A DNA stretch of 64,000 nucleotides. Source: a bacterium (lineage in GTDB: Bacteria; Patescibacteriota; Patescibacteriia; JAGPKW01). The stretch covers positions 75,610 through 139,609 of the forward strand of contig JAJXYN010000009.1 in assembly GCA_021780535.1 (NCBI GenBank). The letters are read 5' to 3'. Of this stretch, positions 15,126 through 43,582 are shown piece after piece. The notes under the pieces were generated by a model, which worked only from the letters and a program-made list of their open reading frames with translations, ran no database searches and was not told where the DNA came from. Both the position numbers and the translations under genes were made by a program. Every line of letters begins with the position of its first letter. Positions within the stretch are counted from its first letter, which is position 1.

Positions 15126-15202
15126 GGGTGTGTAGCTCAGCTGGTTAGAGCACGACTCTTATAAAGTCGGGGTCGATGGTTCAAGTCCATTCACACCCAC
15201 CA
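15126..15202 (+). tRNA. tRNA-Ile (anticodon UAU)
   Basis: 77-nt cloverleaf. Anticodon stem cgact/agtcg with loop cttataa. Ile-like D/T arms (tagctcagctggttagagc, ggttcaagtcc). Encoded CCA. Confidence 0.75.
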
Positions 15203-31807: not shown

Positions 31808-32497
31808 TCAAAAAAAATATAAATCAAAATCACCAATATAATATCCTAAACATTTTTTATTTTTAATTAATTCTGTTTTTGTATATTTGTTTATTTTTTT
31901 TCTAATATTTTTTATAAAAACTTCTACTACATTTGAAAATGGATTATCATTTTCATCCCATATTTTGTCAAATATTTCTTGCCTGTTTATTATTATATTT
32001 TGATTTCTAAAAAATAGCTCTAAAATATTAAACTCTTTTTTCGTTAAACATATTTTATAATTTCTAAAAAATAATTTTTTTAAATTTAAATCTAAATAAA
32101 AATTATTGTATTCTATTTTATCTTTTATATAACTATTACTAGATCTTCTTAATATTGCTTCTATTCTTAATATTAATTCTTCTTTGTTGAATGGTTTTTT
32201 AACATAATCATCTCCACCAGCTTTTAATGCATTTAATAAAAATTTGTCATCACTAATAGACGTTAAAAATATAATTGGTGTATTATTTTTCATTGCTCTT
32301 AAATCTTTACATATATCTATTCCATTTTTTTCTGGAACATTTATATCAATCATTATTAAATCATAATTATTCATAGAGGCTTTTAGTAACCCAGACTTTC
32401 CATTTGTTTCATAATCTAAAATAAAATAATTTTTATCTAAAATAATTTTTATAGCCTCAATAATTTCAATATCATCTTCTATATATAGTATTTTCAT
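31808..32497 (-). CDS. OmpR-family response regulator (REC plus winged-helix); no kinase gene adjacent
   Basis: MKILYIEDD...DLIMIDINVP...IIFLTS...KAGGDDYVKKPF (receiver with phospho-acceptor Asp). C-terminal trans_reg_C-like region. Confidence 0.75.
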   Translation of the reverse strand: MKILYIEDDIEIIEAIKIILDKNYFILDYETNGKSGLLKASMNNYDLIMIDINVPEKNGIDICKDLRAMKNNTPIIFLTSISDDKFLLNALKAGGDDYVKKPFNKEELILRIEAILRRSSNSYIKDKIEYNNFYLDLNLKKLFFRNYKICLTKKEFNILELFFRNQNIIINRQEIFDKIWDENDNPFSNVVEVFIKNIRKKINKYTKTELIKNKKCLGYYIGDFDLYFF

Positions 32498-39087: not shown

Positions 39088-40401
39088 CTACAAAAGTCTT
39101 GCTACTTTCTCGGCTATTTCAGACCTAACAACTTTTATTAGCTTTATAAAACAAAAATCGTTTTCATTAATAAATGCTCTAATAAAGTTGGAGAATCCAT
39201 TTGAATATTTATCCAAATACATATCATCCATTTGATCTAAATCTCCGGTTAGTACAACCTTTGATCCTTCACCACTTCTAGAAACCAACGTTTTCATTAT
39301 ATGTCTAGTTGTATTTTGTGACTCATCAATTATTATGTAAGATTTTGGCCAAGTTGCTCCTCTTGCATATTGTACTGTTTGTATTTCTATTATTCCATTT
39401 TTTATCAATTCTTCTGCTTTCTTACAATTAAAAGGCCTATTTTTTTTCTCCATACTTTTGATTTGAGACAATATAAAGTCCACATTATTCATAATTCCAG
39501 CCATCCATGGGTTTATTTTTTGACTAATGTCTCCAGGAGTAAAACCTAAATCTGATTTTTGATCTACGGGGATAGTGTGCCTGATTACTATGATTTTTTC
39601 ATAATCACCATTTATATATCCAAGCAAACCAGCCATTAAAGCTAATAGGGTTTTCCCAGTGCCAGCCACCCCAGATAATGCAACAAAATTTATTTTTTTG
39701 TCCATGCAAGCTATTAATGCACAATCTTGTTCTGGATTTAAGCTATGAATCTTGAAAGAATCTTCAAATAAGTTCTCAGCCCAAATCGCTTCTGATCTAG
39801 TGTTTTCATTTACTATTTTTATATATTTACCTTTTTCTGGTTCTTGGTATCTAACAGACTTTATTCCATTTGTATAATTATCTTTTCTTTTGAAAACTTT
39901 TCCATATTTTTCAAAAAGATCTGTTTTATCATTTTGGTAATCCTGTGCCACAACACCTATTGATGTTGCTTTTATTCTCATATTTATGTCTTTACTTACT
40001 AATATAACTTTTCTGTTTGTTTTAAGAGCTACTTGCTTATCCTGATATTCTTTGGCTATAGAAATAATATAATTATCAATTTTATCAATTTTAAATATAT
40101 TATTACTATCATAACTAGATATTATAAGCTTACCTAAACCCTTACCTCTTTTTTTGCCATTTGCCGAAAGCGTAAGTATTTTTTCAATTATCTTCACTGC
40201 AACTCTAGCATATTTTCCTCTACTTGAATCTTCTGTTTTTATTTTATCTAATTCTTCCAATACAGCAAATGGTATTAATATATCATTTTCTTCAAAAGCA
40301 TACAGAGAATATGGATCATGTATTAGAACATTTGTATCTAATACATAGATTTTTGTTAAATTACTGACCTTACCAGAAGCACCACTGGATTGACTCTTCA
40401 T
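39088..40401 (-). CDS. PhoH2-type protein (N-terminal PIN domain fused to a PhoH-like ATPase)
   Basis: PIN VLDTNVLIHDPYSL...VLEELD. P-loop LSGVAGTGKTLLAL. PhoH-like C-terminus. Confidence 0.75.
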   Translation of the reverse strand: MKSQSSGASGKVSNLTKIYVLDTNVLIHDPYSLYAFEENDILIPFAVLEELDKIKTEDSSRGKYARVAVKIIEKILTLSANGKKRGKGLGKLIISSYDSNNIFKIDKIDNYIISIAKEYQDKQVALKTNRKVILVSKDINMRIKATSIGVVAQDYQNDKTDLFEKYGKVFKRKDNYTNGIKSVRYQEPEKGKYIKIVNENTRSEAIWAENLFEDSFKIHSLNPEQDCALIACMDKKINFVALSGVAGTGKTLLALMAGLLGYINGDYEKIIVIRHTIPVDQKSDLGFTPGDISQKINPWMAGIMNNVDFILSQIKSMEKKNRPFNCKKAEELIKNGIIEIQTVQYARGATWPKSYIIIDESQNTTRHIMKTLVSRSGEGSKVVLTGDLDQMDDMYLDKYSNGFSNFIRAFINENDFCFIKLIKVVRSEIAEKVARLL

Positions 40402-40463
40402 CGTAAATTCCTCCCAATATTCGTATTTTGCATTATAAACATTACTCCTTTTATAGCTTTTGT

Positions 40464-40826
40464 CTATACATTAATTATTTCTAATAACTTATTTTTTGTA
40501 ATTGGCTTACATAAATATAAAATATTCAACTTTGAAATAATATTTTTATATTTATCAATATTTGATGAAATAAATATTATTTTATTTAATTTTTTTATTT
40601 TTTGTAATTCTATAATCATATCAACACCAGATATTATTGGCATCTCTATATCTGTAATTATAATATCATAATCATTATTTAAAATATCGTTAAATGCTTC
40701 TTCGGAATTGCTGAAATATGATATTTTATAATTTATATTTTTTCTAAATATAAATTTAATAGAATTTAAAACATCAACATCATCATCAATTATGATAATG
40801 CTTTTAGTCGCGTTGGATTTTGTCAT
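40464..40826 (-). CDS. Stand-alone receiver (CheY-like REC) domain protein
   Basis: 120 aa. IIIIDDDVDVLNSIK...DIIITDIEMPIISGVD...IIFISS is the receiver fold with the phospho-acceptor Asp. No output domain. Confidence 0.7.
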   Translation of the reverse strand: MTKSNATKSIIIIDDDVDVLNSIKFIFRKNINYKISYFSNSEEAFNDILNNDYDIIITDIEMPIISGVDMIIELQKIKKLNKIIFISSNIDKYKNIISKLNILYLCKPITKNKLLEIINV

Positions 40827-40940
40827 GTTTTGAGATTATTACATAACCAAAAAACCCTCTATCAAGAGATATGGCTTTTGGCCAACCAACGCGACATTGG
40901 TCTCTCTTGGATAGAGGGATTTTTAGTCGCGTTGGATTTT
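40802..40940 (-). promoter_or_regulatory. Structured 5' leader of the REC gene: terminator-like hairpin plus a 10-nt motif present three times
   Basis: A 20-nt perfect direct repeat ttttagtcgcgttggatttt sits at 40802-40821 (codons 2-8 of the REC gene) and at 40921-40940. Between them is a 15-bp stem ccctctatcaagaga/tctcttgGatagaggg whose 33-nt loop carries ccaacgcgac, the exact complement of the repeat core. On the mRNA strand the hairpin is followed by UUUUUUGG. Confidence 0.45.
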
Positions 40941-40965
40941 AATTAATTAGATTATATAACAAATA

Positions 40966-41601
40966 CTAAATAAAATCAAACCTGCCATGAAATAATTTAT
41001 TTCTTTTAGTATTTATTGTGTTTAGTATATTTAAGTTTTTTATATTATTATCAAATAATACCCCTAAATCCTCCCAATTTTTTAAAATAATATCTTTTAT
41101 ATCTATAAAATCTGCATAAAAAATGTAATGAAAACGATTATTATCAAATTTTGATCTTTTAATACATATATCTGAAATTTTTTTATCTATATTATTAAAC
41201 CACCAATCCGAACCATATTTAGTGGATAATATTTTAATTATTTTTTTTCTTAAAATGTTTTCATATACTATAAATTTTTTATAAAAGAATATATTTTTAT
41301 TTATTAAAAAATCAGAATATAATATTTTCAAATTTTTAAATTTATTTATTGTTGTTTTTCTTATTTTATTAATGTATATGCTTCTTGTTTCTACTTTAAT
41401 AAATAAATTATTTATATTTTTAAATAATATAAATTTTATAATAATAAAATCATTGTAAGAATAAAATATTTTTCTATCATCATATTCTTTATATTTTAAA
41501 TTATTAATAAGATTTAACTTTAATATTAAAGTATATATATCAAAACAGATAAGTTTATAATCCTTAAATATTAAAGTATATTCTTCTTTTTGTAATCTCA
41601 T
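40966..41601 (-). CDS. Hypothetical protein with a C-terminal HEPN-type Rx4HG motif (putative RNase / Abi-like)
   Basis: 211 aa. The C-terminus ...NTKRNKLFHGRFDFI fits the HEPN (Swt1/Abi_2-like) R-x4-H-G signature. Its start overlaps the stop of the RadC-like gene (41598-41601). Confidence 0.4.
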   Translation of the reverse strand: MRLQKEEYTLIFKDYKLICFDIYTLILKLNLINNLKYKEYDDRKIFYSYNDFIIIKFILFKNINNLFIKVETRSIYINKIRKTTINKFKNLKILYSDFLINKNIFFYKKFIVYENILRKKIIKILSTKYGSDWWFNNIDKKISDICIKRSKFDNNRFHYIFYADFIDIKDIILKNWEDLGVLFDNNIKNLNILNTINTKRNKLFHGRFDFI

Positions 41602-42233
41602 ATAATACCTTTATCTTTAAAACTTATAAAAGAATTATCTTTTATAATTATAAAATCAACAAACAAAATATCTAAAAATATACTTTTTTCTTTCAAATTT
41701 GTTGCAAATTTTATAAAATCTTTATTTGTATCTATTTCTTTTGACCCACAAACAATAAAAAATTTTTTAAAATCCAATTCAAATAGCAATTTAAATATTT
41801 TTTTTATATCATAATCTAGAATATTTTCACCTAGATAAATTAAATTCTTATTAATTATTTTATTTTGGTTATTTAAAACAATTAAATAGAATTCTGTTAT
41901 TTTAAGATTTAATAAATATTTAAAATTTTCGTATATTTTTTTTGATGAATTAATAAAAATATCTTCGTTTTTGTCAAATATTCTCCTGCCTATTTCTATG
42001 CAAGAACAAATCTGTGAAGCCTTTACTATTGGTATCTTTAATTGTTCCACAATTTGTTCTACTGATTTAAATATTGTTAAGTCTGCACCATAATCTTTAA
42101 TTACTCTATCAGAAATATCAAAAACTGATTCCGATTTTGATCCATTATTTAATATAATTGATAACAATTCCTTCATTTCTAAATATCTTGGACCAAGTCT
42201 TAATAACTTTTCTCTTGGTAACTCTATTTCCAT
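41598..42233 (-). CDS. RadC-like (JAB/MPN) protein with degenerate JAMM motif
   Basis: The N-terminus LPREKLLRLGPRYLEMKELLSIILNNGSKSESVFDISDRVIKDYGADL...IEIGRRIF aligns with the RadC HhH region (PRE+LL..G...L.D.ELLAILLRTG..G..V..LA..LL..FG.L....ELARR). At the JAMM position HNHPSG..S..D the sequence reads FIVCGSKEID-TNKD. Confidence 0.5.
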   Translation of the reverse strand: MEIELPREKLLRLGPRYLEMKELLSIILNNGSKSESVFDISDRVIKDYGADLTIFKSVEQIVEQLKIPIVKASQICSCIEIGRRIFDKNEDIFINSSKKIYENFKYLLNLKITEFYLIVLNNQNKIINKNLIYLGENILDYDIKKIFKLLFELDFKKFFIVCGSKEIDTNKDFIKFATNLKEKSIFLDILFVDFIIIKDNSFISFKDKGII

Positions 42234-43168: not shown

Positions 43169-43582
43169 ATGCCAAATAAAAAGAACGCAGAAAAAGCTTT
43201 AAGACAAAGTAAAAAAAGACAACAAGCTAATGATAAAATTAGATTTTCTATCCATGATATGAAAAGAAAAATAAGAAAAGCTTTAGAATCTAGTGCTTCT
43301 GCAGATGAATTGCAAAATCTTTATAAACAAGCTCAAATTTTATTAGACAAAGCTACTAAAAATAATGTTATAAAAAAGAATAATGCTTCTAGAAAAAAAG
43401 CTTCTATTTCTAATATGATAAGTAAATCATCTAAACCAGATAATTCTACTACTAAAAAAGTTGCTACAAAGAAAGCTACTACAAAGAAAACTACTACTAA
43501 AAAAGTTGCTACAAAGAAAGCCACTACAAAGAAAACTACTACTAAAAAAGTTGCTACAAAGAAAGCTACTGCTAAAAAATAA
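43169..43582 (+). CDS. rpsT: 30S ribosomal protein S20 with a Lys/Thr/Ala-rich tandem-repeat C-terminal tail
   Basis: The N-terminal 85 aa (MPNKKNAEKALRQSKKRQQANDKIRFSIHDMKRKIRKALE...) match S20. The tail is three 15-aa units KKVATKKATTKKTTT, encoded by a 45-nt tandem repeat. Confidence 0.85.
   Translation: MPNKKNAEKALRQSKKRQQANDKIRFSIHDMKRKIRKALESSASADELQNLYKQAQILLDKATKNNVIKKNNASRKKASISNMISKSSKPDNSTTKKVATKKATTKKTTTKKVATKKATTKKTTTKKVATKKATAKK
43447..43578 (+). repeat. 45-nt tandem repeat (about 2.9 copies) inside rpsT
   Basis: actactaaaaaagttgctacaaagaaagc(t/c)actacaaagaaaact, near-perfect copies. Confidence 0.7.

Follow-up and report, generated by a model that had tools for sequence, protein, structure and literature searches.

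A probable cis-acting structured RNA leader upstream of an orphan receiver gene in an A+T-rich, small-genome bacterial lineage

The gene for a stand-alone receiver protein in the window (the whole stretch of 64,000 nt that was analysed) is preceded by a hairpin-forming segment that is, in our judgement, very probably a functional cis-acting structured leader. Its conservation among related loci, its compensatory base changes and its one-sided changes, which wobble on the sense strand only, point in this direction. Most likely it is a new attenuator-type leader outside the described RNA families. Whether it works as the two-state switch proposed below is, on our assessment, evenly balanced.

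The features of the locus are listed in the direction of transcription. All of them lie on the reverse (−) strand.

41598–42233, − strand: RadC-like gene, upstream of the 211-aa gene
40966–41601, − strand: 211-aa gene, upstream of the leader, with a weak HEPN signal
40951–40979, − strand: leader promoter, with −35 box TTGATT (40979–40974), a 17-nt spacer and −10 box TATAAT (40956–40951)
40921–40940, − strand: 5′ copy of the repeat, AAAAUCCAACGCGACUAAAA, with its core CCAACGCGAC at 40935–40926
40845–40928, − strand: long hairpin P0 plus P1 with a three-way junction on top, from the minimum free energy (MFE) fold, RNAalifold and compensatory pairs
40884–40902, − strand: P2 hairpin, GACCAAUG-UCG-CGUUGGUU, which carries the 10-mer GUCGCGUUGG at 40895–40886
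40873–40883, − strand: P3 hairpin, GGC-CAAAA-GCC, followed by the 3-nt joiner AUA at 40872–40870
40849–40854, − strand: U6 tract, terminator-like, directly after the G+C-rich base of P1
40827–40844, − strand: A/U-rich spacer from the hairpin to the start codon
40802–40826, − strand: start codon (40826–40824) and coding copy of the repeat (40821–40802; core 40816–40807)
40464–40826, − strand: receiver gene, 120 aa, stand-alone and CheY-like (Pfam Response_reg, E 2.6e-17)
39088–40401, − strand: PIN-PhoH gene, downstream of the receiver gene

Conservation of the leader and its locus

The perfect 20-mer TTTTAGTCGCGTTGGATTTT occurs exactly twice, at 40802–40821 and 40921–40940 (+), with 119 nt from start to start. 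About 0.03 matches per 64 kb are expected by chance for such a repeat with three mismatches tolerated. The 10-mer GTCGCGTTGG is found three times with zero mismatches, at 40807–40816 (+), 40926–40935 (+) and 40886–40895 (−), with about 0.07 expected. A preliminary description of the sequence had reported the direct repeat, a loop-borne 10-mer complementary to the cores of both copies and a locally high G+C content. The first two are exact and unexpected by chance; the G+C content is 45% in the 91-nt element and 25% in the window.

Eight distinct leader variants, all metagenomic and from one narrow clade, were compared (the window, L001; and L008, L012, L016, L033, L035, L123 and L126). The loci were collected through homologues of the receiver protein (64–70% identity) and of the 211-aa protein (54–71%). 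Scanning metagenome contigs for an exact 18-mer returned 28 matches, of which four were true low-GC loci and two of these new variants. The receiver protein also recurs letter for letter in GCA_027355865.1, GCA_021833805.1 and several metagenomes, and contigs with an identical receiver show at least 99.5% identity to the window and are therefore uninformative on variation. The source organism is uncultivated.

Between variants the structured leader is 79–100% identical and is the most conserved stretch of the locus. The two flanking coding sequences are 60–85% identical, and their third codon positions 45–77%. All variant loci have RadC, the 211-aa gene, the leader and the receiver gene in this order, and every locus with this receiver type has the leader at the same position. 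The hairpin and repeats of the preliminary description are thus kept in all eight orthologous loci. A covariance-model search found one leader per locus and none elsewhere in the window or in about 148 kb. A profile search of 1.84 billion cluster representatives returned two clusters of the orthologue group and then dropped steeply to generic receiver domains. A search of genome contigs with a profile of the receiver alignment gave, among the matches listed, generic receivers of at most 40% identity and no orthologue. Judged by the search of cluster representatives, the orthologue group is restricted to a narrow clade.

The RadC/211-aa/receiver block comes and goes as a unit. In L033 the block is present without PIN-PhoH and the receiver gene is followed by tRNA-His. 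In locus L137 CorA is followed directly by PIN-PhoH and the whole three-gene block is absent, and the PIN-PhoH homologues P0014, P0018 and P0016 led to loci that have neither the receiver gene nor the leader; with orthologues at only about 43% identity, PIN-PhoH is a poor marker of the lineage. PIN-PhoH is thus not always present, and the leader goes with the receiver gene.

PIN-PhoH evolves much faster (about 43% identity between L001 and L008) than the receiver and 211-aa proteins (70–71%), and it has a strong GGGAGG ribosome-binding site (40408–40413, 7 nt before the ATG), unlike most genes here. One PhoH match at 41% identity carries the label Patescibacteria. A tRNA-Ile with anticodon UAU (15126–15202) represents an uncommon bacterial way to read AUA. 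The ribosomal protein S20 gene (43169–43582) encodes a C-terminal tail of KKATTKKTTTKKVATKK repeats, and the length of S20 varies with the tail between strains (137 aa here, 122 aa in L004).

The preliminary description had also allowed for the footprint of a small duplication. A perfect direct repeat does flank a G+C-rich, insert-like segment in an A+T-rich genome, as a target-site duplication around a 99-nt insert would. Nevertheless, we regard a duplication footprint, a mobile element or chance as very improbable. The same arrangement stands in the same place in eight lineages whose flanking genes differ by 15–40%, which is the mark of selection across diverged lineages and leads us to reject that proposal. 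Removal of the supposed insert would delete the start codon. There is a single copy per locus and none elsewhere in the window; nothing similar to the leader was found in phages or plasmids, and a 16-mer scan of viral contigs gave G+C-rich chance matches only. An integron attC site was considered separately and rejected: GTTGGAT fits GTTRRRY, but the inverse core misfits, there is no integron integrase, and the G·U pattern described below points to an RNA.

At gathering thresholds, Rfam 15 matched only tRNAs in the window. A permissive scan of 40760–41000 gave sub-threshold chance matches (His_leader scored 21 bits where 49 are required; the PK-repBA match was on the wrong strand), and the related loci had no Rfam match either. 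A literature search found no relevant publication on such a leader.

Fold, covariation and strand

On the mRNA strand, P1 pairs 40918–40903 (5′ arm) with 40869–40855 (3′ arm) in 15 bp with one C bulged. P0 pairs 40928–40919 with 40854–40845 (GACU+A5+U with U6+GGUU); it adds 9–10 pairs that continue P1 through the A5/U5 tract, for a total of 25 bp in P0 and P1 together. The G+C-rich base of P1 (CCCUC/GAGGG) is followed by a U run (40854–40849); seven variants have U6 here and L123 has AU5. At its apex the hairpin has 33 nt that fold into P2 and P3 and are not a simple short loop. P2 alone has a folding energy of −6.7 kcal mol−1, and its stem shows one change from A-U to G·U. L008 has an additional G, by which P3 becomes GGCC-GAAA-GGCC and gains a C-G pair and, on the mRNA strand only, a GNRA tetraloop.

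RNAfold, applied to the single variants, and RNAalifold, applied to their alignment, give the same fold, so the hairpin and its junction are predicted independently by both programs. The 15-bp hairpin followed by UUUUUU that had been read from the sequence is borne out on the mRNA strand. The lengths given for the stem and its 33-nt loop were right, but the stem extends to 25 bp and the loop is the P2–P3 junction. Compared with shuffled controls, the sense-strand fold has z = −5.1 and the antisense strand z = −3.8. A terminator consensus scan with loops of 3–8 nt did not call the hairpin; a 33-nt junction is atypical as the loop of a terminator. RNAalifold also draws a hairpin at 40781–40800 (−), just past the coding copy (AUCAUC..GAUGAU, encoding Ile-Ile-Ile-Ile-Asp-Asp-Asp), with some pair changes. 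This may be a mere by-product of the complementarity between Ile (AUC) and Asp (GAU) codons.

We tested 36 base pairs over the alignment. Paired bases make up 95% of the cells, and four pairs are changed on both sides, a count matched by 0 of 500 shuffles; slid controls gave 0–1. In P0, where the window has GACU/GGUU, L008 has GAUU/GAUC and L123 has GGCC/GGCC. L033 replaces C-G by U-A and A-U by C-G in upper P1, and the C·U of L012 and L016 is a plausible intermediate. All one-sided changes wobble on the mRNA strand (U-A to U·G, A-U to G·U and G-C to G·U).

These G·U pairs exist on the sense strand only (they would be A·C on the other), and together with the GAAA loop of L008 they identify the sense RNA as the functional molecule. 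The pattern of changes thus argues that an antisense transcript is not the functional molecule, and it makes a purely DNA-level element unlikely. P0 takes in four bases past the U-tract and can therefore form only in read-through RNA. To judge from this reach past the U-tract, the covarying hairpin would fit a role in full-length mRNA at least as well as one in termination.

Covariation had been proposed as a check on the suggested cis-regulatory RNA, in which the loop and the repeats would pair alternatively. The long hairpin with its four compensated pairs answers to this; the loop–repeat pairings show no covariation. In the helix between the 5′ copy and the 10-mer 100% of the cells are paired, with only two one-sided G·U changes. 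The loop 10-mer and the coding copy are without a change in all eight variants, so their helix gives no covariation signal. The core of the 5′ copy is likewise kept in eight of eight variants, and only its final two positions change: L008 and L126 have U for C, and L123 has G for A. The changed bases stay paired with the 10-mer through G·U. The last bases of the 5′ copy (GACU) are also part of P0, where the changes of L008 and L123 are compensated. The pattern is consistent with a double constraint on these bases and falls short of proving the loop pairing; since P0 accounts in full for the changes, they give the loop pairing no independent support. We rejected a further helix, of the U-tract and GGUU with the coding copy, since the L008 and L123 compensations match the 5′ copy only.

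The leader could also involve no switch at all. It would then be an unconditional terminator of the RadC/211-aa operon, or a 5′ stabilizer or RNase III site, with the 10-mers as DNA operators. At 25 bp the stem has the length needed for RNase III, and type A loci have no other terminator after the 211-aa gene, whereas in the type B loci described below that gene has its own, separate terminator. An efficient unconditional terminator would, however, leave the receiver gene without a means of expression. Operators would leave both the sense-strand-only G·U changes and the near-equal fold energies given below unexplained; moreover, the sites are spaced at 40 and 79 bp, out of helical phase, and the conserved block contains no gene for a DNA-binding protein. 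We consider this reading quite improbable.

A candidate two-state switch

The −35 box of the leader promoter sits within the last codons of the upstream 211-aa gene. The promoter scored 10 of 12 in a consensus scan. Its −10 box is TATAAT in seven of the eight variants and TACAAT in L035, its −35 box reads TTGATx, and its spacer is 17 nt wherever it was counted by eye, with a variable sequence. Transcription would start at about 40947–40943. The distance from the U-tract to the start codon is 18–30 nt across the variants, and this spacer is the least conserved part of the locus (26–79% identity). Neither a Shine–Dalgarno sequence nor a promoter was found in it (40827–40844). Because the spacer is too short and too variable for a promoter, the receiver gene must be expressed by read-through of the hairpin.

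The encoded protein is a bare Response_reg domain without an ANTAR domain. Its acidic pocket DDD, phospho-acceptor Asp59, Ser87/88 and Lys107-Pro108 are invariant. No histidine kinase was found near the orphan receiver gene by a simple motif search. At a distance of about 9 kb there is a second response-regulator-like gene (31808–32497, 229 aa, MKILYIEDDIEII...).

The coding copy of the repeat begins with the third base of codon 2 and ends with the first of codon 9, and its core is +11 to +20 of the mRNA, codons 4–7. These codons, UCC AAC GCG ACU, have synonymous shares of 0.031, 0.12, 0.039 and 0.31 in the window, which gives a joint probability of 4.5e-5. The neighboring codons vary freely. 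Invariant rare codons between free neighbors indicate that codons 4–7 are constrained as nucleotides. Pairing is known to block initiation within roughly the first five codons, and +11 to +20 is at the edge of that region. A Shine–Dalgarno sequence precedes 4 of the 41 long open reading frames of the window. With so few Shine–Dalgarno genes, a switch here cannot work by hiding such a sequence, and a target within the codons suits the genome.

We folded the nascent RNA to the end of the 10-mer or of P3. In eight of eight variants the MFE structure is the helix of the 5′ copy with the 10-mer, at −20 to −22 kcal mol−1. This helix has mostly 10 bp (12 bp in L033 when folded to P3), and the 5′ arm of P1 sits in its 30-nt loop. 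The alternative pairing of the 5′ copy with the loop that had been suggested is thus the predicted nascent structure throughout. After synthesis of the 3′ arm, the terminator fold is the lower in energy by 0–9.5 kcal mol−1; in L033 the alternative fold stays the MFE structure. The two helices share no bases. On steric grounds, however, a stem of 15–25 bp should not be able to form within a 30-nt loop closed by a 10-bp helix, with linkers of 5–7 nt. In silico, the leader therefore has a second, earlier-forming fold that excludes the terminator. In the full-length RNA, opening P2 would cost about 8.5 kcal mol−1, and the duplex of the 10-mer with the coding copy would yield −17 kcal mol−1 before the loop penalty. 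From these calculated energies, such long-range pairing is plausible but not compelling.

In the two-state model, the leader would be the 5′ end of the receiver mRNA, transcribed from its own conserved promoter. In the OFF state, P0 and P1 would form, capped by the P2–P3 junction, and the U6 tract would halt transcription. In transcripts that read through, the 10-mer GUCGCGUUGG on P2 could pair with CCAACGCGAC at codons 4–7 and hinder ribosome binding. In the ON state, the 5′ copy of CCAACGCGAC, which is made first, would capture the 10-mer as it emerges and trap the 5′ arm of P1; the terminator could then not form in time, and the coding copy would be left free. The 5′ copy would thus serve both as anti-sequestor and as 5′ arm of the antiterminator, and the 10-mer as sequestor and as 3′ arm of the antiterminator. 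Both the termination and the occlusion of translation are steps that we infer from the predicted folds. A protein or a small ligand that stabilizes one of the states would be the expected trigger.

The 5′ copy would, in other words, be a built-in decoy of the start-proximal coding sequence, and this role would explain why the two copies are kept identical. More generally, the model would account for the three copies of the motif, the identical direct copies, the frozen rare codons and the lack of a separate promoter. A leader peptide was rejected as the sensing element: the hairpin is preceded by no AUG, GUG or UUG, and an AUG-initiated open reading frame within the loop is disrupted by a frameshift in L008.

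The main variant of the two-state model has one protein bind both copies. Here the copies would be RNA sites for a sequence-specific RNA-binding protein; binding to the 5′ copy would block the antiterminator and promote termination, and binding to the coding copy would block initiation. That the coding copy can pair with the 10-mer would, on this view, simply follow from its being identical to the 5′ copy. The two copies are identical over 20–22 nt in four lineages, well beyond the 10-mer, and their 5′ flank AAAAU has no explanation in loop pairing. Putative RNA-acting proteins, PIN-PhoH and the 211-aa protein with its weak HEPN signal, are encoded next to the leader. The shared part is, however, only 9–11 nt in L008 and L123, the leader of L033 is intact although PIN-PhoH is absent beside its receiver gene, and no RNA-binding regulator was identified. 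We hold such protein-operated attenuation to be possible but doubtful. It would resemble the control of leaders and translation starts by TRAP and PyrR.

The leader could also end at U6 as a stand-alone small RNA of about 95 nt. In cis or in trans, the loop of P2 would act as an antisense to codons 4–7. The 5′ copy would inhibit the RNA from within, and receiver mRNA would come from occasional read-through only. A conserved promoter and a terminator-like end do bound a compact, stable RNA, and the 10-mer lies partly in an exposed loop from which CGCGAC could nucleate pairing. However, the covariation of P0 reaches past the U-tract, which points to selection on read-through RNA, and the 10-mer has no further target within the 64-kb window. 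This makes a separate small RNA unlikely.

A second leader type and comparison with known systems

Three distant orthologues of the receiver gene (in L124, L125 and L141) have N-termini that read MNKYKK or MIKQKKK and are without the motif. They are preceded by another leader, which we term type B.

L124, 2338–2570: type B leader, precedes the orthologous receiver gene
L125, 1586–1818: type B leader, precedes the orthologous receiver gene
L141, 245–492: type B leader, precedes the orthologous receiver gene

The type B leader is about 190 nt long, is 89% identical between two lineages and folds with z = −7 to −7.7. It had no Rfam match. A 15-bp long-range helix, UGCAUAAACACAAUU/AAUUGUGUUUAUGCA (also written TGCATAAACACAATT/AATTGTGTTTATGCA), encloses a multi-branch domain and overlaps a terminator, CGGATACTC..GAGTATCCG+T6 (U6 in RNA), of 9–12 bp. 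According to this predicted fold, type B may follow the same logic, in that base pairing joins a 5′ segment to the apical part of the terminator. The presence of two unrelated structured leaders at orthologous genes makes a stronger case for RNA-based control of receiver expression.

The architecture resembles that of known attenuators and riboswitch platforms such as pyr/PyrR and trp/TRAP, which share with it an own promoter, a G+C-rich stem with a U-tract before the gene, and an upstream segment that gives a mutually exclusive fold, with the two states close in energy. It differs in that the antiterminator helix is formed with the apical part and one arm is trapped; the exclusion is thus topological, with the bases of the terminator stem uncontested. 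In addition, no sensor domain, leader peptide or known protein site was recognized in the leader, and there is no Rfam match.

In sequestor/anti-sequestor switches, and in the 'anti-antisense' action of DsrA on the rpoS leader, one sequence masks the start region and a competitor releases it, as proposed here. This leader would instead mask codons 4–7 and not a Shine–Dalgarno sequence, so that the constraint falls on coding sequence, and release would come from an exact duplicate of that coding site, carried by the same RNA. Dual-acting riboswitches are similar in that one element acts on termination and translation in the same direction, both effects being predicted ones in our case; the aptamer-like part of this leader is very small by comparison.

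Two other systems were considered and rejected. A type III toxin–antitoxin locus (ToxI-like) also has direct repeats and a terminator before a protein gene, and putative RNases are encoded nearby here. The leader has two 20-nt copies 119 nt apart, one of them in the coding sequence, and no tandem array of repeats of about 30–40 nt; the downstream gene encodes a receiver domain and not an RNase toxin. An ANTAR target would have two hairpins in tandem, each with a hexanucleotide loop; here P2 has a loop of 3 or 7 nt and P3 one of 4–6 nt, and there is no ANTAR domain.

We suggest, tentatively and as a rather doubtful possibility, that the leader represents a new class of ligand- or protein-responsive switch, adapted to a genome with few Shine–Dalgarno sequences, in which a decoy of codons 4–7 joins the control of termination to that of initiation, and that the unrelated type B leader evolved at the orthologous gene. 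The finding adds one, probably two, undescribed structured leaders to a poorly known A+T-rich lineage with small genomes. It ties RNA-level control to an orphan receiver protein, and the leader is confined to a narrow clade. If the switch works as proposed, the two RNA classes would imply that a signal sensed by RNA sets the level of the orphan receiver, beside RadC and a HEPN-like gene. Translation would then be switchable by RNA in a bacterium that makes little use of ribosome-binding-site sequences, through the first codons and a decoy in the leader, and this design would mark the coding sequence with rare, frozen codons.
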